The notes under the pieces were generated by a model that saw only the letters and a program-made list of their open reading frames with translations, searched no databases and was not told where the DNA came from. A program made the position numbers and the translations under genes. 22,633 nt of DNA from Candidatus Baldrarchaeum yapensis (GTDB lineage: Archaea > Asgardarchaeota > Baldrarchaeia > Baldrarchaeales > Baldrarchaeaceae). Below are positions 2,528 to 12,671 of the stretch, piece by piece; position 1 is the first letter of the stretch, and every line of letters starts with the position of its first letter. The stretch is from NCBI GenBank assembly GCA_016840465.1, contig JAEOSH010000036.1, forward strand, positions 1-22,633, written 5' to 3'.

Positions 2528-3175
2528 GTGTCTTCTAGCGAGGAGTTCGTAAATGCAATCTTGGAACTCGAGGAAGAGAAAGCGCTTAAAATAACTAGGG
2601 AAAGACTTGAAGCAGGAGAGGATCCCCTAAAGATCCTAGATGATCTTAAGGTTGTAGCTGAAAAAGTTGGAGAAAAATACGAGAAGGGAGAGTTTTTTGT
2701 GGCAGATCTCGTTATGGCTGGAGAGATCATGAAGGAAGTGAGCGAACTAGTTAGACCGAAGCTCAAAGAGCTCGGTAAAGCTAGAGAACCTATCGGAAAA
2801 TTTGTCATCGGTACGGTCGAGGGCGATATACATGATATTGGTAAAAATATTGTTGTAACTATGGCCGAGGCGGCTGGGTTCGAAGTCATTGACCTCGGAG
2901 TAGACGTTCCGCCGCAGAAATTCGTTGAGGCAATAAAGCAGCACAACCCGGATGTAGTTGGTATGTCAGGGCTACTAACATTGGCAATAGAATCGATGAA
3001 AAAGACGATAGATGCCATAAAGAATGCTGGGCTCAGAGATAAGGTTAAGATCATTATTGGCGGTGGAAGAGTGGATGAATATGCAAAAGAATATACGGGT
3101 GCAGATGCGTGGACAAATGATGCAGCAACAGGAATAAGAATAATGTTAGGATGGGTGGGAGGAAAGAAGGTTTAG
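2528..3175 (+). CDS. Corrinoid (B12-binding) protein of a methyltransferase system (MtaC/MtoC/MtgC-like)
   Basis: 215 aa. Four-helix cap (GEFFVADLVMAGE), base-off/His-on motif GTVEGDIHDIGKN (DxHxxG), VGMSGLLT, IIGGG. GTG start with RBS GAGGTG. Confidence 0.93.
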   Translation: MSSSEEFVNAILELEEEKALKITRERLEAGEDPLKILDDLKVVAEKVGEKYEKGEFFVADLVMAGEIMKEVSELVRPKLKELGKAREPIGKFVIGTVEGDIHDIGKNIVVTMAEAAGFEVIDLGVDVPPQKFVEAIKQHNPDVVGMSGLLTLAIESMKKTIDAIKNAGLRDKVKIIIGGGRVDEYAKEYTGADAWTNDAATGIRIMLGWVGGKKV

Positions 3176-3186
3176 AGGTGAGCTTA

Positions 3187-4470
3187 ATGGGTGTTAATAA
3201 GGAACCAATAGATGTTTTAATTGAAAGACAGCAAAAAGAACCTGAAACAGTAGCTAAAGAGAGGCTGGACATTATTCTCAAGGCTGTTGAACTGAAGGTT
3301 CCAAGCAGAGTTCCCATAAGTGGATTAGGAGGAGACATAATGGCTTACTATAATGGCAAAACATGGTACGATGTGTGCTACGACTTCGAAAAAGCTCGTG
3401 AAGCCGTACTTAGTTTTGCTAAAAACTTTCCACAAGACTTCCCATTTATCTTAGCTCCATACGGCCTTGAAGGATTTATCTTTGCATTGGCGTTTTCAGA
3501 CTTTCCTGACTTTTCAAACATTATAAGGTTCTTGACAGGCCCTGTACATGATATAATTAAGGATAAGTGGTCTAGGTGGCCTGGAAGAGAACTTAGAGAG
3601 CATCAACATCCCCAGTTCCTTGGCGGAGAGTTCATGAAGCCAGAAGAGTATAAGCAGCTTATCGATGACCCTCTCAAGTTTATTCACGATGTTGTATTTC
3701 CAAGAGCTTGCCCAGGTCTCGGGAAGCCTAAGTCACCACAGTGGAATGGAACACTAATTAGGATAGGCTTAACACTACAGAGAGTTGCATCGTTCCAAGG
3801 AGCACTCTTCCAAGAACTCGGAAAACTCGGTTACCCTGCCATACCTATGACGTCGGCATATTCACCTGCTGACATCATAGGTGACTTCCTTAGACATCCA
3901 ACCGGCGCTATGCTTGATATGAGAAGACATCCGGACGACTTCAAAGCTGCATGCGAAGCACTAATTGAGCATATACTGAAAGTGGCTACAGCAATCCCTC
4001 CAACACCACCACTAACGATAAGCTTCATACCGTTGCATCTTAACGAGATGCTTTCACCTAAACTGTACAACGAATTCTACTGGCCATATCTAAAGAAAGT
4101 GATATTGGAACTCGTCAATAAGGGCTACAAGATGTTCATATTCTTTGAGGGTGACCACACGCCGCATGTAGATACAATACTTGAACTGCCTAAAGGTTGG
4201 GGCGTGGCGTGGTTTGAGAGGCCTAGAGATTTTATAAAAGATGTTTGGGAGAAGTTGAAGGGCCATACATGTGTTATGGGCGGAGTACCAACAAACCTAC
4301 TGGTCGGAGGAACGCCAGAAAAGATTGAAGAATACGTGAAGAACTTACTTAACCAGACCAAATCAGAAGGTGGGTTCATACTATCGACAGGTGTAGCCGA
4401 GTTACCCAAGGAGACACCTAAACAGAATATAAGAGCTTATATAAACGCAGCTCTAAAATATGGAGAATAG
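3187..4470 (+). CDS. URO-D-family corrinoid methyltransferase, MT1/O-demethylase-like (paralogue 1)
   Basis: Likely start is ATG 3187, after RBS GAGGTGA (the track ORF starts at 3151 inside the upstream gene). Motifs PSRVP, LSPKLYNEFYWPYLKK, FFEGD, GHTCVMGGVP, GGFILS. Has LHL rather than the HxC Zn/thiol motif of MtaA/MtbA. Confidence 0.8.
   Translation: MGVNKEPIDVLIERQQKEPETVAKERLDIILKAVELKVPSRVPISGLGGDIMAYYNGKTWYDVCYDFEKAREAVLSFAKNFPQDFPFILAPYGLEGFIFALAFSDFPDFSNIIRFLTGPVHDIIKDKWSRWPGRELREHQHPQFLGGEFMKPEEYKQLIDDPLKFIHDVVFPRACPGLGKPKSPQWNGTLIRIGLTLQRVASFQGALFQELGKLGYPAIPMTSAYSPADIIGDFLRHPTGAMLDMRRHPDDFKAACEALIEHILKVATAIPPTPPLTISFIPLHLNEMLSPKLYNEFYWPYLKKVILELVNKGYKMFIFFEGDHTPHVDTILELPKGWGVAWFERPRDFIKDVWEKLKGHTCVMGGVPTNLLVGGTPEKIEEYVKNLLNQTKSEGGFILSTGVAELPKETPKQNIRAYINAALKYGE
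4024..4097 (+). repeat. 74-bp exact repeat shared by the two URO-D-family paralogues (copy 1)
   Basis: TTCATACCGTTGCATCTTAACGAGATG...TGGCCATATCTAAAGAA is identical to 6514-6587. Confidence 0.95.
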
Positions 4471-4482
4471 GAGGTAAGTCTT

Positions 4483-5667
4483 ATGAGTGAGGTAGAAACA
4501 AAACCCCAGCCTCCAGTTAAGCCGAGTATACTACCAATAATTTTGCTCACTATTTCGTCATTCATTGGTGGTGCCGGCTTCGGTATCTATGCCCCCCTAA
4601 TTCCGTTACATGCTCTTGAGCTCGGAGCTCCACCAGCAATAGCTACAGCTACTGTTATGGCGCTTCCATCAATACTAGCTGTCATCGTTCTGCTTCCCGC
4701 AAGTATCTATGCCGACAAGTCCGGTAGGAGAAAGGAGCTTCTAATAGTAGCATTAGCTCTCGCCACAATCTGTAACTTGCTACTGGGTTTTGCTCGAGGC
4801 TGGGTGGAACTCGCAATTTACAGGACGATAAGTGGGTTGGTATTTGCTTTTCTGTCGTTGTATATGGCTATAGGCGTCCTCATAGCCCCTCCAGAGAAAC
4901 GTGGAACTGTGCTCGCTGTACTTGCAGGTTCTGGTATGCTCGGTATGGGCGTATCGCAATTATTTGCTGGTTCACTCTACAGCATACTCGGTGGATACCA
5001 ACCAATATACCTTCTAGCAGCTGGTTTATCACTTATCAGCTTACTATTACTGCTACCTGTTGAAGCACCTCCTGTTAAACTTCCAGCAATGAGTCTAACC
5101 GATGCTGGGAAAGTTCTGAGAACTCGTGGTGTATACTGGGTCGCTGTGAGCCTGTTCATCTATCTATGTGGATGGAACCTCATGTACCCATCGCTATCAA
5201 TAATATTGACTGAAATCTACGAGGCCCCCGTTTGGATAGCTTCGATAGCATTTGCTGTTGCATCCATCATGCTGGGTGCAGGAACTTACATATGGGGTCC
5301 CGTAATAGACAAAATCGGTGGCAGAAAATCACTGATATCCGCTATTCTCGCATCAGCTATATTTACATTCGTAATGATTCCCACTTTAGGCTTCATGTGG
5401 GCATTCATCATATTGTTCTGGATAGTTACGGTGTTTGGCGTTGTCGGTGCGCCAGGTTCTACCTATGTGGCAACAAAAAGTGTTAAACAAGAATATGCCT
5501 CGATAGCAACAGCTGTACAGTTCGTATTCCTAAGCTTAGCCAGCGTAATCGGAGGCTTTGCAGCAGGAGCGCTCTTAGCTTCACTAGGATTAAGCTATAC
5601 ATTGCTGATAGCTGCTGTTATAGAACTGGTTGGAGGAATAATGATGTTCGGAGTACCAGAGGTGTAA
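4483..5667 (+). CDS. MFS transporter
   Basis: 394 aa with about 12 hydrophobic segments. MFS motif A in both halves (ADKSGRRK; GPVIDKIGGRK). RBS GGAGGT upstream. Confidence 0.92.
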   Translation: MSEVETKPQPPVKPSILPIILLTISSFIGGAGFGIYAPLIPLHALELGAPPAIATATVMALPSILAVIVLLPASIYADKSGRRKELLIVALALATICNLLLGFARGWVELAIYRTISGLVFAFLSLYMAIGVLIAPPEKRGTVLAVLAGSGMLGMGVSQLFAGSLYSILGGYQPIYLLAAGLSLISLLLLLPVEAPPVKLPAMSLTDAGKVLRTRGVYWVAVSLFIYLCGWNLMYPSLSIILTEIYEAPVWIASIAFAVASIMLGAGTYIWGPVIDKIGGRKSLISAILASAIFTFVMIPTLGFMWAFIILFWIVTVFGVVGAPGSTYVATKSVKQEYASIATAVQFVFLSLASVIGGFAAGALLASLGLSYTLLIAAVIELVGGIMMFGVPEV

Positions 5668-5673
5668 CCTCTG

Positions 5674-6960
5674 ATGCAAAAGACGGTGGAAGAACTTTAT
5701 CGTGAAAGGCTTGAGAGATTCGAGAAAGCTGCAAAAAACCAGAAACCGGATAGAGTGCCCTTCATGCCGGCATTTACATATTTTCCAGCTCGATATGCTG
5801 GTATAACATATCACGAATATTCTTTCAACTATAATAAGTTCGTTGAAGCTGTTCTAAAGGTATATAAGGACTTCGACTTTGATTTGGCGGGATTCGTGGC
5901 ACCTGGAACAGGTATACCAGGACCTTTAGGTTTCCCAATAATATTTGTTAGGGAGTTTCCAGAACTTCTCACCACCATACCAGTTTTTGCAGGACCTGCG
6001 CACGATATTCTGGGCGATAAGTATACTAAGTGGCCTGGTAGGGAGCTGGATGTAAATAAACCCTCTCAGATAGCCTATGTAGATGCACCGTACATGACTG
6101 TTGAGGAATACAGGGAGCTCGCAGAAAACCCAGTAAAATTTCTAATAGAGAAAATCGTACCAAGAGTCTACAGAAACCTCTCAAAGCCGGGAACACCACA
6201 ATATATAGCTACGTTGGTAAAACTTGGCATGGAATCGTTGAAATTCGGTGCGGTAATGCAACAACTGGTCATGGAACTCAGGAAAATAGGTTATCCTATG
6301 CTTCCATTCTCTTTTTCAACAACTCCACTAGATTATATAGGTGATAATTTAAGATGTCCACATAACTACATACTCGTAGACATACACAGAGTGCCAGAAG
6401 ACGTGAAAAGTGCAACTGAAGCACTTCTGCCATACCTAATAGAACTAGGTTTAAAAGCTGTACCTCCACCGGAGATTAGAAAGAAACTCTACGGCACAGA
6501 ACTCTGTACAATATTCATACCGTTGCATCTTAACGAGATGCTTTCACCTAAACTGTACAACGAATTCTACTGGCCATATCTAAAGAAGCAAATAGTAGAA
6601 TTCCATAAAGCTGGTCTTATATCGTGGGTATTCTTTGAGGGCGACCATACACCACACCTGGAGACATTGCTGGAGGTGCCGAAAGGTAGTGTAATAGCGT
6701 ATTTCGAGAAAACCGATCTTAGGAAAGCCAGAGAGGTGTTAGGGGACCATGTCGTTATCATGGGTGGATTACCACCAGCACTTCTTGTGCTCGGAACACC
6801 AGAAAAAGTCTATGAAGAAGCGTGTAAGTTACTTAACGATGTTAAGGAGCCAGGAGGCTTCATAATGGCGGGTAGCGGTGTGACTGGTATACCAGATGAA
6901 ACAAAACCAGAAAACCTGAGGGCTCTTATAGAAGCAGTGAAGAAATGTGGAACTTATTGA
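5674..6960 (+). CDS. URO-D-family corrinoid methyltransferase, MT1/O-demethylase-like (paralogue 2)
   Basis: 428 aa. KPDRVPF, LHLNEMLSPKLYNEFYWP, FFEGD, GDHVVIMGGLP, GGFIM. Collinear with paralogue 1 and lacks the HxC motif. Confidence 0.82.
   Translation: MQKTVEELYRERLERFEKAAKNQKPDRVPFMPAFTYFPARYAGITYHEYSFNYNKFVEAVLKVYKDFDFDLAGFVAPGTGIPGPLGFPIIFVREFPELLTTIPVFAGPAHDILGDKYTKWPGRELDVNKPSQIAYVDAPYMTVEEYRELAENPVKFLIEKIVPRVYRNLSKPGTPQYIATLVKLGMESLKFGAVMQQLVMELRKIGYPMLPFSFSTTPLDYIGDNLRCPHNYILVDIHRVPEDVKSATEALLPYLIELGLKAVPPPEIRKKLYGTELCTIFIPLHLNEMLSPKLYNEFYWPYLKKQIVEFHKAGLISWVFFEGDHTPHLETLLEVPKGSVIAYFEKTDLRKAREVLGDHVVIMGGLPPALLVLGTPEKVYEEACKLLNDVKEPGGFIMAGSGVTGIPDETKPENLRALIEAVKKCGTY
6514..6587 (+). 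repeat. 74-bp exact repeat shared by the two URO-D-family paralogues (copy 2)
   Basis: Identical to 4024-4097; the flanking sequence diverges on both sides. Confidence 0.95.
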
Positions 6961-7046
6961 AGTAAAATGGTGAAGCATTAAACTTAACAATACAAAACTG
7001 AAATAATGTCGGCAAGTTTTAAATATTTGTGAAAGGAAGTGATCAG

Positions 7047-7955
7047 ATGTTTAAGTTTGAAAAAGAACAAAAGATATTTGATATATGTGGCGTGAAGATT
7101 GGCGGCCAGCCAGGGGAGTTACCTACAGTTATGATTGGAAGCATTTTCTACCATAAACATAAAATTGTAGAAAACGAGAAGACAGGTGAATTTGACAAGA
7201 AAAAGGCGGAAGAACTTTTGAAAAAAGAAGAAGAACTAATGGATAAAACCGGGAATCCTAGGATCGTCGATGTTTGTGCTTCTTATCCTGAAGCCTTCCC
7301 AAAATTCATCGATTTCGTTGCAAGTATAATTGATGGACCATTCCTCATCGATGGTGCAACCGAAGACGCGAGAATTGCGGGAGCAAAATATGTCGAGGAA
7401 GTGGGTTTAGCTAACCGCGTCATATACAACTCCATTACGCCCCACATAAAGGAAAGGGAAATCACAGCACTAAAAGAGTCAAAAATCAAATCTGCAATAC
7501 TACTTACATTAAACACAAGAAACCCCACAATATCCGGAAGACTAGAAGCCCTAGAAGAACTTCTAAAAATAGTAGGCGAAATAGGAATCGAGAAACCCTT
7601 AGTGGATACAACCGTCCTAGACATCCCGGATCCGGGTCCAGTAAGCAAAGCAATATACAGAGTTAAGGAAAAATATGGACTACCAGCTGGAGCAGGAATA
7701 CACAACGCTATAGACAGATGGAGAGAAAGAGCGAAACTAGATCCATATAAATATGCTTTGGCCAGTAGCGTTGCATATGTAACATCAATCATAATGGGCG
7801 CCGACTTCGTCCTATACGGCCCGATAGAAAATGCTCCAGAGGCATACTTCGCCGTATCACTAGCTGACGCATACGTATCATACAGCATGAGACAAGAATA
7901 CCGCTTACGACCACTAACACAAAACCACCCAATATTCAAAATATTTAGAAGATAA
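7047..7955 (+). CDS. MtrH-like methylcorrinoid:tetrahydropterin methyltransferase (MtoA/MtgA-like), canonical
   Basis: Likely start ATG 7047 (MFKFEKEQ). Motifs KIGGQPGELPTVMIGSIFY, LIDG, YNSI, LVD, HN, GADFVLYGPI and C-terminal HPIFK, all MtrH-family hallmarks. Confidence 0.88.
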   Translation: MFKFEKEQKIFDICGVKIGGQPGELPTVMIGSIFYHKHKIVENEKTGEFDKKKAEELLKKEEELMDKTGNPRIVDVCASYPEAFPKFIDFVASIIDGPFLIDGATEDARIAGAKYVEEVGLANRVIYNSITPHIKEREITALKESKIKSAILLTLNTRNPTISGRLEALEELLKIVGEIGIEKPLVDTTVLDIPDPGPVSKAIYRVKEKYGLPAGAGIHNAIDRWRERAKLDPYKYALASSVAYVTSIIMGADFVLYGPIENAPEAYFAVSLADAYVSYSMRQEYRLRPLTQNHPIFKIFRR

Positions 7956-8099
7956 GCGAGGCCATTTTGTGATTTTACAAAAGGCAATTTTCTTTTATTT
8001 CGATAATATGGTGCTTCTGAACTTTTTTGAGGTTGAGCAACCACAATTAAGAATTAAGTGGACAAAAACATATTTCGTGCACAACCTCTATTTCCTTAA

Positions 8100-8404
8100 C
8101 TGGAAGGCCATAGAGTCGGGATGTACATGAAACGGCCACGCGGCGGACGTCACGAAATCATTAGAGACAGTAGCCTTCGTCAAGATCCAGGAGAGAGCCT
8201 CCTTATCGAGTTTGTAGGCCGCGTATGGAGTGGAGGAACACCTCCGCGACCCTCGATATGCTTAAATACTGCACCCGCTGTACCGTATTTTCGTCTTCCC
8301 ATCAATGATAATTCGTCTTTTTGATGTTGTGTCGGCATCTCATACTGTTAGGTGCCGCAAGCGGCCGCGTAAACCCTTCGCATTCTTCGAGAAAAAGTTT
8401 CGAA
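8100..8404 (+). mobile_element. Degraded IS relic, copy 2 (possible 3' end of an IS4-superfamily/ISH3-like transposase plus terminus)
   Basis: 8224-8401 is homologous to the reverse complement of 1750-1936. Frame-broken peptides WKAIESG..MKRP..RTSRNH weakly resemble the W-x-IE..R-T-S-R-N C-terminal region of ISH3-type transposases. The family call is tentative. Confidence 0.5.
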
Positions 8405-8491
8405 CGAGAAAGAATTTATTGTTTTCACTTCATGGTTTCTCTTTGAAGCTTTAGGATCTTACAGCGGAAGTAGCAATAGAGGTGTGAAATA

Positions 8492-10408
8492 GTGCCTGAA
8501 GCAAAAGGATTGGAAGTAGGGAAAATAGTGGTGGTTTTTGAACCAGAGGGAAAAAAGATAGTAGTAAAGTCTGGAGCCACCATACTGGAAGCAGCGAAAA
8601 ATGCAGGTGTAGGTATTAGATCTGAATGTGGAGGAGAAGGAATTTGTGGAAAATGTAAGGTGATTGTCAAAAATCCTTTGGCCATAAGCGAGTTGACCGA
8701 GGCTGAAAAACGACATTTATCTAAGTTGGAGATAGATTCAGGCTACAGATTAGCTTGCCAAGCACATATCAAACAAAGTGTTGTGATAGTAGTTCCTCCT
8801 GAAAGTAGAATTGGGGAACGTAAAATTCAAGTTGCTGGTTTAGAAAGATACGTGCCCTTAAACCCTTTAGTCAAGAAAATTCACGTAGTTATGGCAAAAC
8901 CCACATTATCCGATGTTAGACCAGACTTCGAAAGACTTATCGACCATCTGAGGGACAGAAACGGCTTTGAAGATTTAGAAATAGACTATGAACTCTTAAA
9001 GAAACTGCCTGATATAATTCGTAGCAAAAATTGGGCCGTAACGGTAACAATCTGGGATGACAGAAAGCTAATTGATATTGAACCGGGAGATACCTCAAAT
9101 GAACTTTTTGGGTTTGCCGTAGATATAGGCACTTCCAAGATAGTTGGCTATCTAGTTGATCTGACAACAGGTAAAACTATAAGCATAGGGTCTATTGAAA
9201 ACCCCCAAATCATGCATGGTGAAGACATTATAACAAGGATAGGGTTCGCAACAGGTAGCGATTCAAACCTCGAAGTACTGCAGAAACTTGTTATCAACGG
9301 TATAAATCAAGTCATACATGAAGCTTGCAGAAAAGCGAAAGTCAACCCAAACAAAATATACGAGGCAACAGTTGTTGGGAACACAGCAATGCTTCACTTT
9401 TTCTTAGCAATCCAGCCAAGATATCTTGCTCTTTCACCTTTTGTACCAGCCATAAAAAAATCTCTGAATATTAAAGCCAAGAACTTAGGGCTCAAAATAA
9501 ATCCTAGAGGAAATGTTCACGTTCTACCGGTTATAGCCGGATTTGTTGGGGCAGATGCGGTTGCAGATGTTTTATCAACAGGAATTCTCGAATCCAACGA
9601 GGTTTCTTTGCTGATAGATATTGGAACGAACACTGAAGTGTTTGTAGGAAACTCCGAAGATATGATAACTTGTTCCTGTGCTTCTGGACCAGCTTTCGAA
9701 GGAGCGCATATCAAACATGGGATGAAAGCTGTAACAGGTGCAATAGAAAAGGTTCGCATAATTTCAGAGGATGAGGTTGAATATGAAGTGATAGGGGGCG
9801 TAAAACCTACTGGCATATGTGGATCAGCTATGATTGATATCATAGCTGAAATGTTTAAACAGGGAATAATAGATAGTCGTGGAAGATTTAACCTAAAAAT
9901 AAAAACACCTAGATTAAGGAAAAACAACAAGTGGACAGAGTTTGTTGTTGCTTGGGGTGATGAGACCGCAACAGGTAAAGAAATCACGGTAACGCAAAGA
10001 GATATCAATGAAATTTTACTTGCAAAGGCCGCCATATACACGGGATGCTCAATTCTAATGAAAAGGAGAAACGTTAAAGAGGAAGATATTGATAGAGTTT
10101 ATATTGCTGGGGCCTTTGGAAGCTACATTAACCCTGAAAACGCGAAAATCATAGGTTTAATCCCCGATATACCAACGAGAAAGATAGAGTTTGTTGGCAA
10201 CACCGCGATAACAGGTGCAAAAATGGCCTTAATATCTAAAGAGATGAGGGAAAAAGCAAATCTAATATCAAAGAAAGTTCGTTACTTGGAACTTACGATG
10301 GATCCCGACTTCAGCAAAGAATTTGTAAACGCCCTATTCATACCAAACAGAAACATAAATAGATTTCCAACAGTAAAAAAATTATTAAAGAGACTTAGGA
10401 AAAATTAA
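8492..10408 (+). CDS. Reductive activator of corrinoid proteins (RACE/RamA/MtoD family; 2Fe-2S plus ASKHA ATPase)
   Basis: 638 aa. CGGEGICGKC...RLAC 2Fe-2S motif, ASKHA motifs DIGTS and DIGTN, SGPAFEG, GICGS, LAKAAI, AGAFGS. GTG start after RBS GAGGTG. Confidence 0.92.
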   Translation: MPEAKGLEVGKIVVVFEPEGKKIVVKSGATILEAAKNAGVGIRSECGGEGICGKCKVIVKNPLAISELTEAEKRHLSKLEIDSGYRLACQAHIKQSVVIVVPPESRIGERKIQVAGLERYVPLNPLVKKIHVVMAKPTLSDVRPDFERLIDHLRDRNGFEDLEIDYELLKKLPDIIRSKNWAVTVTIWDDRKLIDIEPGDTSNELFGFAVDIGTSKIVGYLVDLTTGKTISIGSIENPQIMHGEDIITRIGFATGSDSNLEVLQKLVINGINQVIHEACRKAKVNPNKIYEATVVGNTAMLHFFLAIQPRYLALSPFVPAIKKSLNIKAKNLGLKINPRGNVHVLPVIAGFVGADAVADVLSTGILESNEVSLLIDIGTNTEVFVGNSEDMITCSCASGPAFEGAHIKHGMKAVTGAIEKVRIISEDEVEYEVIGGVKPTGICGSAMIDIIAEMFKQGIIDSRGRFNLKIKTPRLRKNNKWTEFVVAWGDETATGKEITVTQRDINEILLAKAAIYTGCSILMKRRNVKEEDIDRVYIAGAFGSYINPENAKIIGLIPDIPTRKIEFVGNTAITGAKMALISKEMREKANLISKKVRYLELTMDPDFSKEFVNALFIPNRNINRFPTVKKLLKRLRKN

Positions 10409-10484
10409 GTTCATAAAATATTTAGCACGCATACACTGCCACATCGAAGGCTAAATTTTAATTACTTACTTAAATTGTGAATAA

Positions 10485-10512
10485 ATAACGCGCTAAAATA
10501 TTTTTGCGTTAT
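10485..10512. promoter_or_regulatory. Imperfect palindrome upstream of the second MtrH-like gene
   Basis: ATAACGC-GCT-AAAATATTTT-T-GCGTTAT in the AT-rich spacer 10409-10573. Confidence 0.3.
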
Positions 10513-10573
10513 ACGTTATAATTCTCCTCAATTTTAAAAGTTAAAAATTAAAATGTTTTTTGGAGATGATCTT

Positions 10574-11509
10574 ATGTTTGAAATTGATAAGCTCAAGCCT
10601 AATCAGAAGATTTTTGAGATTGGAAAGGTAAGGATTGGAGGTAATCCTGGGGAACTTCCAACAGTTTTAATTGGAAGCATTTTTTATAAGGGGCATAAAA
10701 TTGTTAAGGATCAAGTTAAGGGCGTTTTTGATAAGGGGCAGGCTGAGAAGTTAATTGTGAAGCAGGATGAATTATCAGAGGAGACGGGGAATCCATGTAT
10801 GGTTGATGTAGAAGCATTTTCAAAAAAAGCTATTGAAAAATACATCGACTTCGTATCTGAGGTAACAGATGCACCTATTTTGGTAAACAGTATATATGTG
10901 CCAGTTAGGTTGCACGGAGTCAAATATGCTAAGGAAGTAGGTCTCATAAATAGGATAGTCTATGTTTCTATTAACTATAAGGTGGATGATAAGGAAATAG
11001 AATTTTTAAGGAATATTGGATTGAAATCCGCTGTAATTCAAGCTTTTAATCCAAGAAACCCTTGGCCAGAAGGCATGTTGCAAATTCTCTTAGGAAAAAA
11101 CGGTCTACTAAACATTTCTTCTAAAATTGGTGTGGAAAAACCTTTAATTTTAACTAATGTTTTAGACGTTCCTAGCATAGGTTTAGCGGCAAATGGAATA
11201 AAAGTAATTAAGGAGGAAACCGGCTTTCCAACTGGTACAGCCCCTGTCGGCGTAGTTGGATCTTGGTATAGAAATGTTGCGATTAAAATTTTTGGAAGTG
11301 ATGCTAAAGGTTGTTGCGAAGCGGTAGCTATGGCGATGTGTCAATTTGCTGGTGCAAATTTTATACATTACGGTTCTCTAAGAAAAGCCAGTAGGATCTT
11401 TCCTGCAACAGCTATGATAGATGCTATAATAGCATATAAGGCTAGACTTCACGGAATAAAACCGAAAACCAAGAATCATCCATTATACAAAATCTCTTTC
11501 CACATTTGA
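10574..11509 (+). CDS. Divergent MtrH-like protein lacking the canonical pterin-binding residues
   Basis: Likely start ATG 10574 (RBS GGAGATGA). RIGGNPGELPTVLIGSIFY and C-terminal NHPLYK fix the family. It has LVNS, YVSI, LILT and PVGV where the paralogue has LIDG, YNSI, LVDT and IHNA. Confidence 0.85.
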   Translation: MFEIDKLKPNQKIFEIGKVRIGGNPGELPTVLIGSIFYKGHKIVKDQVKGVFDKGQAEKLIVKQDELSEETGNPCMVDVEAFSKKAIEKYIDFVSEVTDAPILVNSIYVPVRLHGVKYAKEVGLINRIVYVSINYKVDDKEIEFLRNIGLKSAVIQAFNPRNPWPEGMLQILLGKNGLLNISSKIGVEKPLILTNVLDVPSIGLAANGIKVIKEETGFPTGTAPVGVVGSWYRNVAIKIFGSDAKGCCEAVAMAMCQFAGANFIHYGSLRKASRIFPATAMIDAIIAYKARLHGIKPKTKNHPLYKISFHI

Positions 11510-11515
11510 AATCTC

Positions 11516-11532
11516 TAGTACTTCTGAAACTT
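11516..11532 (+). repeat. Isolated IS-terminus-like 17-mer, identical to 1750-1766
   Basis: TAGTACTTCTGAAACTT. It is truncated about 10 bp later by the IS at 11543. Confidence 0.7.
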
Positions 11533-11542
11533 TCTGAGGAAT

Positions 11543-12541
11543 GAGGGTTGTTTCATAATTTTACAAATGTAAAGGGGAGGGTCTATAGGGGCGGGCCGCC
11601 CCCATAGACTCATGCGACGACACGACCAGCTCATGGATATACCGTACAACCGCAACGCAATTATGGCTATTCTCGTCGCGACAAGGAGGCTGATATCAGA
11701 GGCACGGACGAGACGGAGACGCAGGGGACGCCCGCCGAAGTACGAGACGTGGAAGCTCGCAACACTCTGCGCAATAAAGGTACTCCTCAACATAACCTTC
11801 AAAAGAACCGCGGAGCTCGCACCACTCATCGTGGGCGCATCCCCAGCCCTGCAACCATCCACAGGGCCCGGGTGAAGCTAAAGGAATGGGCAATGGAGGT
11901 CGCAGCAAAGGCCACGGGAAACCCCGACCTCCCGGTCGCAGACTCAACCGGAGTCCCGCACCGCCAAAAGGGCCTCCACTTCAAGGTTCACTTCCTATAC
12001 GACATACTATCCGACCCCGTAATAGCCGCAACCCCCCGGCTCCACCGCAGACTACCAAGGCTACCGGAAACTCCTGCACTCGGTCCCTGAAAAATCCGCC
12101 ATGCTCGCAGGCTCGGCGTACTTCGGAAGGAGCAACTCCGAAAAAACCTGGAAAGGATGCGCCCCTCCTCACAAAACCCAGAAGGCCGCCCCGCTGGGGA
12201 AGGAGGCAGGACTGGGGCGCAAAATACGAAAGGATATTCGAGGCCCTCAAGTACCTCTACCGCCACAGAGGCGAGGGAGAGCGCTTCTGCTCGAGGCTAA
12301 AGGCGAGGTTGAAGAGGGCGCTGAAGTATCATCTCGTTGATAGCGCGGACGCCTTCGTGAAGTGGCTATCACTCGCGATGAATATAGAGCGGATCGTCAT
12401 CGGGAAGACAGGCGCGTGACTCGGAATCCGATAAAGCCTGAGGGGCAGAGACGGCTGGCGACGCGCGCATCAGCGACCGACACCCCCGGGCCGATGCCTA
12501 GCCGTGAGTATTTATGTTGAATTTATTTATGAAACAGCCTC
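11543..12541 (+). mobile_element. IS5-like (DDE_Tnp_1) insertion sequence, about 1 kb, with imperfect terminal inverted repeats
   Basis: Left end GAGGGTTGTTTCATAA (11543-11558); right end TTATGAAACAGCCTC (12527-12541; reverse complement GAGGCTGTTTCATAA). AT dinucleotide on both flanks. Visibly GC-richer than its surroundings. Confidence 0.8.
11612..12419 (+). pseudogene. Frameshifted DDE transposase
   Basis: Four overlapping ORF pieces stitch into GRPPKYE...SPATIHRAR...VADSTG...KVHFLYD...MLAGSAY (usually DxAY)...YRHRGEGERFCSRLK. At least three frameshifts, and the second catalytic Asp appears lost. Confidence 0.8.
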
Positions 12542-12593
12542 ATGAAGCAAAAAGTATTAGAAAGTAATAATCAGAATATTATCCGAAATGATA

Positions 12594-12671
12594 GGGCCCG
12601 TGGCCTAGTCTGGATAGGGCACCGGCCTGCGGAGCCGGGGGTCGCGGGTTCAAATCCCGCCGGGCCCGCCA
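12594..12671 (+). tRNA. tRNA-Arg(GCG), intronless, CCA encoded
   Basis: Full cloverleaf; anticodon GCG at 12629-12631; CCA at 12669-12671. Confidence 0.96.

Follow-up and report, generated by a model that had tools for sequence, protein, structure and literature searches.

The window analysed here is a 22,633-nt stretch of DNA from the Asgard archaeon Candidatus Baldrarchaeum yapensis (contig JAEOSH010000036.1), in which a corrinoid methyl-transfer cluster occupies positions 2528–11509, entirely on the + strand, and closes with the gene for MtrH2, a protein of the MtrH methyltransferase family. We report that MtrH2 belongs to a large, apparently undescribed clade of archaeal proteins that have replaced the residues needed for pterin binding and whose conservation points to a rebuilt pocket. 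The genes and features of the locus are as follows.

2528–3175, + strand: corrinoid protein with B12-binding_2 and B12-binding domains (Pfam)
3151–4470, + strand: URO-D family methyltransferase, putative MT1 (Pfam)
4483–5667, + strand: MFS transporter (Pfam)
5674–6960, + strand: second URO-D family methyltransferase, putative MT1 (Pfam)
7029–7955, + strand: MtrH1, canonical MtrH-type methyltransferase with an intact Asp/Asn/Asp/Asn tetrad (alignment, Pfam)
8492–10408, + strand: RACE/RACo, reductive activator of corrinoid enzymes (Pfam Fer2, RACo_linker, Raco_middle and RACo_C_ter)
10409–10573, + strand: RACE–MtrH2 spacer, 165 nt, AT-rich, 26–30% GC (sequence, composition)
10562–10565, + strand: putative GGAG Shine–Dalgarno-like box, 8 nt 5′ of ATG 10574 (sequence reading)
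10574–11509, + strand: MtrH2, 311 aa, MtrH-family TIM barrel of the pterin-site-less clade (open reading frame (ORF), Pfam, AlphaFold2 model, tree)
11560–12560, unstranded: GC-rich multi-copy repeat directly 3′ of MtrH2 (composition, genome comparison)

No mtrA–G genes were found in the window among its ORFs and Pfam matches. Within the cluster, the first four genes follow one another at distances of at most 12 nt, and a 537-nt gap (7956–8491) separates MtrH1 from the annotated start of RACE.

The MtrH2 frame is open from 10553 to 11509, with a second in-frame ATG at 10553; ATG 10574 is the start that agrees with the N-terminus of the family. The protein covers profile positions 2–298 of 299 in Pfam MtrH (PF02007; E = 1.4e-82), which, together with the GGAG box, bears out the claim of an earlier note on this DNA that the gene is full length and preceded by a ribosome-binding-site-like element. 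Among the NCBIfam models, MtrH2 exceeds the cut-off of NF002142 (299.5 versus 287 bits), and it stays under that of the MtrH equivalog TIGR01114 (249.6 versus 271.4 bits) and far under that of the MtgA model (252 versus 550 bits). Its identity to MtrH1 is 42%. The window genome (2.27 Mb, 96% complete) holds as MtrH-family genes only MtrH1, MtrH2 and one fragment (contig C80, 3094–3508), which is broken into two pieces and contains an in-frame TGA.

In the MtrH of M. mazei, the pterin is bound by Asp103, Asn129, Asp196 and Asn230 (PMC12774963). A gap-free mapping places these residues opposite Asp108, Asn134, Asp193 and Asn226 of MtrH1, and opposite Asn105, Val131, Leu193 and Gly226 of MtrH2. 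Between the two paralogues, LIDG has changed to LVNS, YNSI to YVSI, LVDT to LILT and IHNA to PVGV, exactly the four substitutions that the earlier note had described. The HMMER alignment to MtgA likewise sets Asn105 opposite D102 and Gly226 opposite N227, the residues mutated in PDB entries 6sjo and 6sjs, and the pterin-binding and catalytic Asp/Asn/Asp/Asn tetrad is thus absent from MtrH2. The counts given with the four codons below refer to a 218-member family tree, in which 107 rows fall within the clade, as named and defined in this analysis, and 111 outside it.

10886–10888, + strand: codon of Asn105, in place of the first pterin-binding Asp (M. mazei D103, MtgA D102); Asn in 107/107 clade members, Asp in 100/111 others
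10964–10966, + strand: codon of Val131, in place of the pterin-binding Asn (M. mazei N129); change limited to the window's subclade
11150–11152, + strand: codon of Leu193, in place of the tetrad's second Asp (M. mazei D196); clade residue Phe (55/107) or Leu (52/107), versus Asp in 108/111 others
11249–11251, + strand: codon of Gly226, in place of the catalytic Asn (M. mazei N230, MtgA N227, MeTr N199); Gly in 106/107 clade members, Asn in 104/111 others

Because these columns are strongly conserved in the 111 non-clade members (Asp 100, Asn 93, Asp 108, Asn 104), the four changes in MtrH2 are not chance drift. The loss of the whole tetrad, as the earlier note had it, holds for the window's small subclade only; in the rest of the clade the second-site Asn mostly persists, being retained by 94 of the 107 members. 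Judged by the residues replaced, the annotation of MtrH2 as an ordinary MtrH is very probably wrong and the protein presumably acts on something other than a pterin, in agreement with the note's view that it cannot be a normal pterin methyltransferase.

The clade signature consists of Asn105, Gln156, Met168, Leu/Phe193, Gly226, Val227 and Ser268, and all seven residues are found in MtrH2; among its best 120 homologues, about 100 have Asn at the first site, Leu or Phe at the third and Gly at the fourth. The clade has over 100 members, which come from Bathyarchaeia, Hadarchaeota and some Asgard archaea. The 107 members in the family tree are monophyletic (FastTree support 99), with a canonical Asp/Asn/Asp/Asn group as their sister, and an IQ-TREE analysis of the proteins from genome loci recovered the same clade (39 rows, SH-aLRT 99), within which MtrH2 groups with its counterparts from loci L012 and L005 and from Borrarchaeum (support 94). 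The clade is present in roughly 7 of the 151 sampled Bathyarchaeia species. Most clade-bearing genomes hold exactly two MtrH-family genes, and in 8 of 35 the clade member is the only one. The assignment of clade and canonical genes by hidden Markov model score in whole genomes is approximate (clear at 458 bits or more, ambiguous at about 415–430). Some clade members exceed the TIGR01114 equivalog cut-off. NCBIfam has no separate model for the clade, and literature searches on MtrH in Bathyarchaeia, MtoA, pterin-binding paralogues and 8Z9U found no published description; the clade is apparently undescribed, as the earlier note had suspected of this component. Searches for longer, fused relatives found none, and the four long family members (P0159, P0203, P0257 and P0269) all have a canonical pocket. 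Pocket variants in or near the clade (L100, L119, L120; L124, L126; P0126) combine Ser168 with Thr131, or His168 with Met193 and Ala268; P0126 and P0129 are placed outside the main clade in the FastTree tree.

In the comparison with the sister genome L012, MtrH2 has a ratio of nonsynonymous to synonymous substitution rates (dN/dS) of 0.19, and in that with L005 one of 0.14; the ratios of neighbouring genes are similar, at 0.13–0.16. The earlier note had proposed to look for a conserved clade under purifying selection, and the number of members, the tree support and these ratios reveal one. Given this large conserved clade and the low dN/dS, MtrH2 is, on the evidence of its sequence, an intact and probably functional clade member and not a decaying copy.

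The states of the clade-specific positions, in MtrH2 numbering, are given below.

Position 38: canonical Tyr; clade His (92%); window Tyr, retained
Position 105: canonical Asp; clade Asn (100%); window Asn
Position 156: canonical Leu; clade Gln (100%); window Gln
Position 168: canonical Arg; clade Met (97%); window Met
Position 193: canonical Asp; clade Phe/Leu (100%); window Leu
Position 226: canonical Asn; clade Gly (99%); window Gly
Position 227: canonical Ala; clade Val (95%); window Val
Position 268: canonical Pro; clade Ser (97%); window Ser

In its AlphaFold2 model (predicted local distance difference test score 91.4, predicted TM-score 0.91), MtrH2 has the TIM-barrel fold of MtgA and MtrH, with TM-scores of 0.90–0.93 to MtgA (6sj8/6sjo) and 0.91 to M. 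mazei MtrH (9qtp_o). The clade-specific switches map in this model to the C-terminal ends of strands 1, 3, 4, 5, 6, 7 and 8, that is, to the catalytic face. Since the predicted structure superposes on both MtgA and MtrH, a structure-based realignment that would bring back the Asp/Asn residues, a possibility raised in the earlier note, is very unlikely. The ratio of column entropy on the pocket face to that in the rest of the protein is 0.50 in the clade and 0.47 in the canonical sister clade, and the window protein shares 67–69% identity with the Borrarchaeum proteins on the pocket face and 47% elsewhere. This constraint is the pattern of a protein still binding something at that face, and conservation of this kind indicates that the pterin pocket is rebuilt, not abandoned, in the clade. 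In an anaerobic Mtr structure, the corrinoid ring is reported to contact MtrH Phe156, Met200 and Pro201 (preprint 10.64898/2026.07.03.736320). Their aligned counterparts are Phe158 (conserved in 106 of the 107 clade members), Leu197 (104) and Asp198 (107), a pattern that would fit a retained capacity for corrinoid docking.

The clade comprises two subtypes, of which B is the main one, and these differ as follows.

Hosts or members: subtype B, Bathyarchaeia, Hadarchaeota, Brockarchaeota and others; subtype A, the window, L012, L005 and Borrarchaeum
Position 38: subtype B His; subtype A Tyr/Phe
Position 131: subtype B Asn/Thr/Asp; subtype A Val/Ala
Position 195: subtype B Pro; subtype A Asn
Position 265: subtype B Ile; subtype A His
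Position 279: subtype B Cys; subtype A Thr/Ala/Val
Usual context: subtype B, iron and Fe–S handling genes; subtype A, corrinoid methyltransferase islands

Two Asgard-labelled lineages hold subtype A within corrinoid methyltransferase islands. In addition to the window's own lineage, the clade gene of Borrarchaeum lies 1–7 kb from a corrinoid protein and URO-D pair, a canonical MtrH, a third MtrH paralogue, RACo, a B12-binding regulator and methylene-H4MPT (tetrahydromethanopterin) dehydrogenase. The third paralogue (L038, 6769–7686; L043, 18266–19183) adjoins canonical MtrH and RACo, and its pocket has Tyr at the first Asp (105) and Arg at the catalytic Asn (226), with Gly at the second Asp as well in L043. 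Two small tandem proteins of 113–126 aa always flank the Borrarchaeum clade gene (L038, 9054–9812; L043, 9042–9752; L117; L118), and neither Pfam nor NCBIfam gave a match to them. When JGI metagenome contigs were scanned for the window's subclade, only the Borrarchaeum-type loci L117 and L118 emerged, and no further lineages. Within the main subtype, a URO-D family methyltransferase is close to a few clade genes (L024, L045, L017); in L024 the two genes share a strand and the methyltransferase gene is the next one downstream, after a 54-bp gap.

The earlier note had held that the position of MtrH2 right after RACE fits an accessory role; the 165-nt AT-rich spacer between the two genes speaks against their coupling. 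The spacer contains a 7-bp inverted repeat (10485–10491 and 10506–10512) and a TTTTAAAA box at about 10532, and it shows indels in other strains; it probably carries a promoter of MtrH2's own, and its length and composition suggest that RACE and MtrH2 are probably transcribed separately. The junction itself is confirmed by a 2,994-nt contig from another run, which covers 8585–11560 with two differences, and contigs of three further runs bridge 10333–10619. On the 3′ side, between MtrH2 and a tRNA (12594–12668), lies the repeat of about 1 kb, with a GC content of 55–61% versus about 37% for the genome, which recurs in at least 10 places in the window genome at 70–97% identity, often at contig ends. 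Rfam gave no match in this GC-rich stretch, which may be a mobile element or a structured-RNA repeat. Synteny with L012, a genome labelled Ca. Baldrarchaeota (Asgard phylum) whose protein is 96% identical to MtrH2, ends at 11515, at the repeat. The L012 cluster (3564–9668) is eroding: it has lost the MFS gene and the second URO-D gene, its RACE carries frameshifts together with a 654-bp deletion (window 9484–10139), and the codon matching ATG 10574 is ACG. The same 654-bp deletion is found on contigs of runs X4 and X5, indicating that intact and eroded strains coexist.

Our preferred reading, which we hold only tentatively, takes MtrH2 to be a functional barrel that continues to face a corrinoid, binds a different, non-pterin ligand and works beside the corrinoid protein of the cluster; we are led to it because the fold and the corrinoid-contact positions are retained and the pocket residues are replaced. 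The pterin pocket would have been remade through the changes of Asp105 to Asn, Asp193 to Leu/Phe and Asn226 to Gly, joined in the window's subclade by Asn131 to Val/Ala, and the near-invariant Gln156, Met168, Val227 and Ser268 would have arisen in the clade. The conserved TIM barrel and contact positions could still allow corrinoid docking, and an uncharged, more hydrophobic small ligand would be bound instead of H4MPT or tetrahydrofolate (H4F). MtrH2 would exchange a methyl group, as acceptor or as donor, with the corrinoid protein encoded at 2528–3175, with RACE keeping that protein reduced and MtrH1 presumably serving the pterin branch. Iron or sulfur metabolism may be the source of this ligand, since the same barrel in the larger sister subtype of Bathyarchaeia and Hadarchaeota sits among iron and Fe–S genes. 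For the window's Asgard-type subclade, a role with the corrinoid protein remains plausible because two of its lineages hold the gene in corrinoid methyltransferase islands. At genome level, RACo is encoded in 31/35 clade-bearing genomes versus 86/151 sampled Bathyarchaeia, an enrichment that is suggestive but confounded by phylogeny. A bolder version, to which we assign a low probability, would make the whole clade a new corrinoid-dependent methyltransferase barrel, with an acceptor or donor from Fe–S or metal metabolism (e.g. sulfide, a thiol or a metal-bound ligand handled by NifX-like or MinD–ferredoxin proteins) and with the window's subclade recruited into a demethylation island; if true, one-carbon methyl transfer would be tied to Fe–S and metallocofactor chemistry in Bathyarchaeia, Hadarchaeota and Asgard archaea.

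Several observations weigh against a corrinoid-linked role. Structural constraints could account for the conservation of the corrinoid-contact residues, and the position of MtrH2 after RACE may stem from a rearrangement, because synteny ends at a possibly mobile repeat just 3′ of the gene. We compared the contexts of 39 clade and 44 canonical loci from species-representative genomes and assemblies within a limit of 3 kb (Fisher test), counting as iron/metal genes those for NifX-like Nitro_FeMo-Co proteins, MinD-type ATPases with a ferredoxin insert, FeoA/FeoB, the DtxR-type repressor, ZnuABC-type transporters, DUF364 and VIT1. Such a gene is found in 26/39 clade versus 0/44 canonical loci (p = 3e-12), and a corrinoid protein or RACo in 2/39 versus 21/44 (p = 1e-5). 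The linkage to RACE that the earlier note had proposed to examine therefore fails for the clade as a whole, surviving only as the corrinoid islands of the two subclade lineages. The clade genes on JGI metagenome contigs have the same iron/Fe–S neighbourhood. In L005, which encodes the closest homologue of MtrH2 beyond the window's own lineage (77% identity), the genes downstream are feoAB and that of a DtxR-type repressor, and no RACE is found in the 400 upstream bases present on the contig. These points favour the main alternative, in our view an unlikely though serious one, that MtrH2 acts in iron/Fe–S cofactor handling with orange-protein (ORP)-like proteins rather than in corrinoid methyl transfer, and that its place after RACE is accidental. 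Gene order around the clade genes varies between loci, so the iron/Fe–S association is not one inherited block; moreover, the neighbours match ORP components (PMC6345978), the main subtype has gained His38, Cys75 and Cys279, and the repeat element stands at the synteny break 3′ of MtrH2. Nevertheless, the window's subclade is without His38 and Cys279, two of its lineages are placed in corrinoid methyltransferase islands instead, and the neighbourhood typical of the clade is not that of MtrH2 itself, which has RACE upstream and the repeat downstream, the NifX-like genes of the window genome being on other contigs. No conserved Cys/His cluster-binding motif is evident either, and the ancestral fold is that of a small-molecule barrel facing a corrinoid. 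Complex prediction for a main-subtype member (P0006) and the NifX-like protein encoded just upstream of it gave scores of 0.13 and 0.08, which speak neither for binding nor against it. As regards the neighbouring radical SAM gene, a NifB-like identity was ruled out by NCBIfam.

The earlier note had also proposed that MtrH2 may have no catalytic role and serve instead as a partner protein, forming a heterodimer with MtrH1 or linking RACE to the corrinoid protein as an adaptor; this proposal now seems improbable. It can draw on the dimerization of MtrH and MtgA through their C-terminal helices (PMC12774963), on the presence of canonical MtrH and RACE near the gene in the window's lineage and in Borrarchaeum, and on the missing catalytic Asn. 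However, the former active-site face, as constrained as that of canonical proteins, is the most conserved part and its new residues are near-invariant, which is unexpected of a mere scaffold and makes a purely structural role less likely; the genomes in which the clade member is the sole MtrH-family gene render an obligate heterodimer with canonical MtrH unlikely for the clade, the RACE adjacency is limited to the window's lineage and the Borrarchaeum loci, and the spacer points to separate transcription. That MtrH2 might still be a pterin methyltransferase, binding H4MPT/H4F through other residues such as Asn105, Asn195, Gln156 and Asp198, has in its favour the retention of two further pocket-lining residues, Asp78 and Ser35, and the several polar side chains that remain, yet both pterin-ring carboxylates and the transition-state Asn, at least 90% conserved outside the clade, are lost across it, Arg168 is replaced by Met, and the MtgA D102A and N227A and MeTr N199A mutants were made to probe exactly these residues; we consider this very improbable. 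Least credible of all is the view of MtrH2 as a decaying duplicate of MtrH1: erosion of the cluster in L012 could be read in that way, but the window frame is intact, dN/dS is low, the same substitutions are conserved in more than 100 homologues, and MtrH2 is 52–77% identical to its database homologues versus 42% to MtrH1, and is therefore no recent duplicate.

In Bathyarchaeia, Asgard archaea and related uncultured lineages, stand-alone "MtrH" genes are widely taken to indicate methylotrophy or methyl transfer linked to H4MPT (e.g. PMC7886697). Clade members are annotated as MtrH and yet, going by their alignment, appear to be devoid of the residues needed to bind or activate methyl-pterins, so that metabolic reconstructions of the genomes in which such a protein is the only MtrH (8/35) may be wrong. 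The conserved, rebuilt pocket points to a new ligand, possibly a new methyl acceptor or a link between corrinoid and iron–sulfur chemistry, and the protein, soluble and of 35 kDa, is open to direct testing.

Set against known systems, what is new here is apparently a pterin-site-less branch of the known MtrH/MtgA family. The MtgA of Desulfitobacterium hafniense, a methylcorrinoid:tetrahydrofolate methyltransferase (6sj8, 6sjn, 6sjo, 6sjs), belongs to the same Pfam family and shares the TIM barrel with the MtrH2 model (root-mean-square deviation about 2 Å, 39% identity), but its D102, N227 and other pterin-binding Asn and Asp correspond to Asn, Gly, Val and Leu in MtrH2. Family and fold are likewise common to MtrH2 and the MtrH of the M. 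mazei Mtr complex (9qtp, 9qts), whose corrinoid-contact positions have apparent clade-conserved counterparts in MtrH2, although its four pterin-binding residues are all altered there and no mtrA–G genes lie beside MtrH2. The [Fe8S9C] metal cluster of Mtr was considered as an explanation of the clade's NifX link and rejected, since a preprint places this cluster in MtrCDE, not in MtrH. The earlier note had drawn an analogy with the small subunit of the corrinoid iron–sulfur protein (CFeSP), a TIM barrel from the pterin-binding superfamily that partners a corrinoid without binding pterin; MtrH2 is no CFeSP subunit and lies inside the MtrH family, as sister to canonical MtrH-like proteins. The neighbours of the main subtype belong to families known from the ORP complex of Desulfovibrio vulgaris (Orp3/Orp4 MinD–ferredoxin ATPases, Orp8/Orp9 Di-Nase) and IssA of Pyrococcus (PMC6345978), and also correspond to the MrpORP carrier of the Desulfovibrio ORP system; however, no MtrH-like protein has been described in ORP systems, and the window MtrH2 is not beside such genes. 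The best match among solved structures is the MtxA/MtoA-type methyltransferase of Methermicoccus shengliensis (8z9u; E = 2.9e-66), from archaeal methoxy-aromatic demethylation, a system whose gene cluster resembles that of the window in comprising a corrinoid protein, a URO-D type methyltransferase, an MtrH-like protein and an activator. Unlike MtrH2, 8z9u retains LVDS, YNSI, LIDT and HNA, and its role suits MtrH1, not MtrH2.

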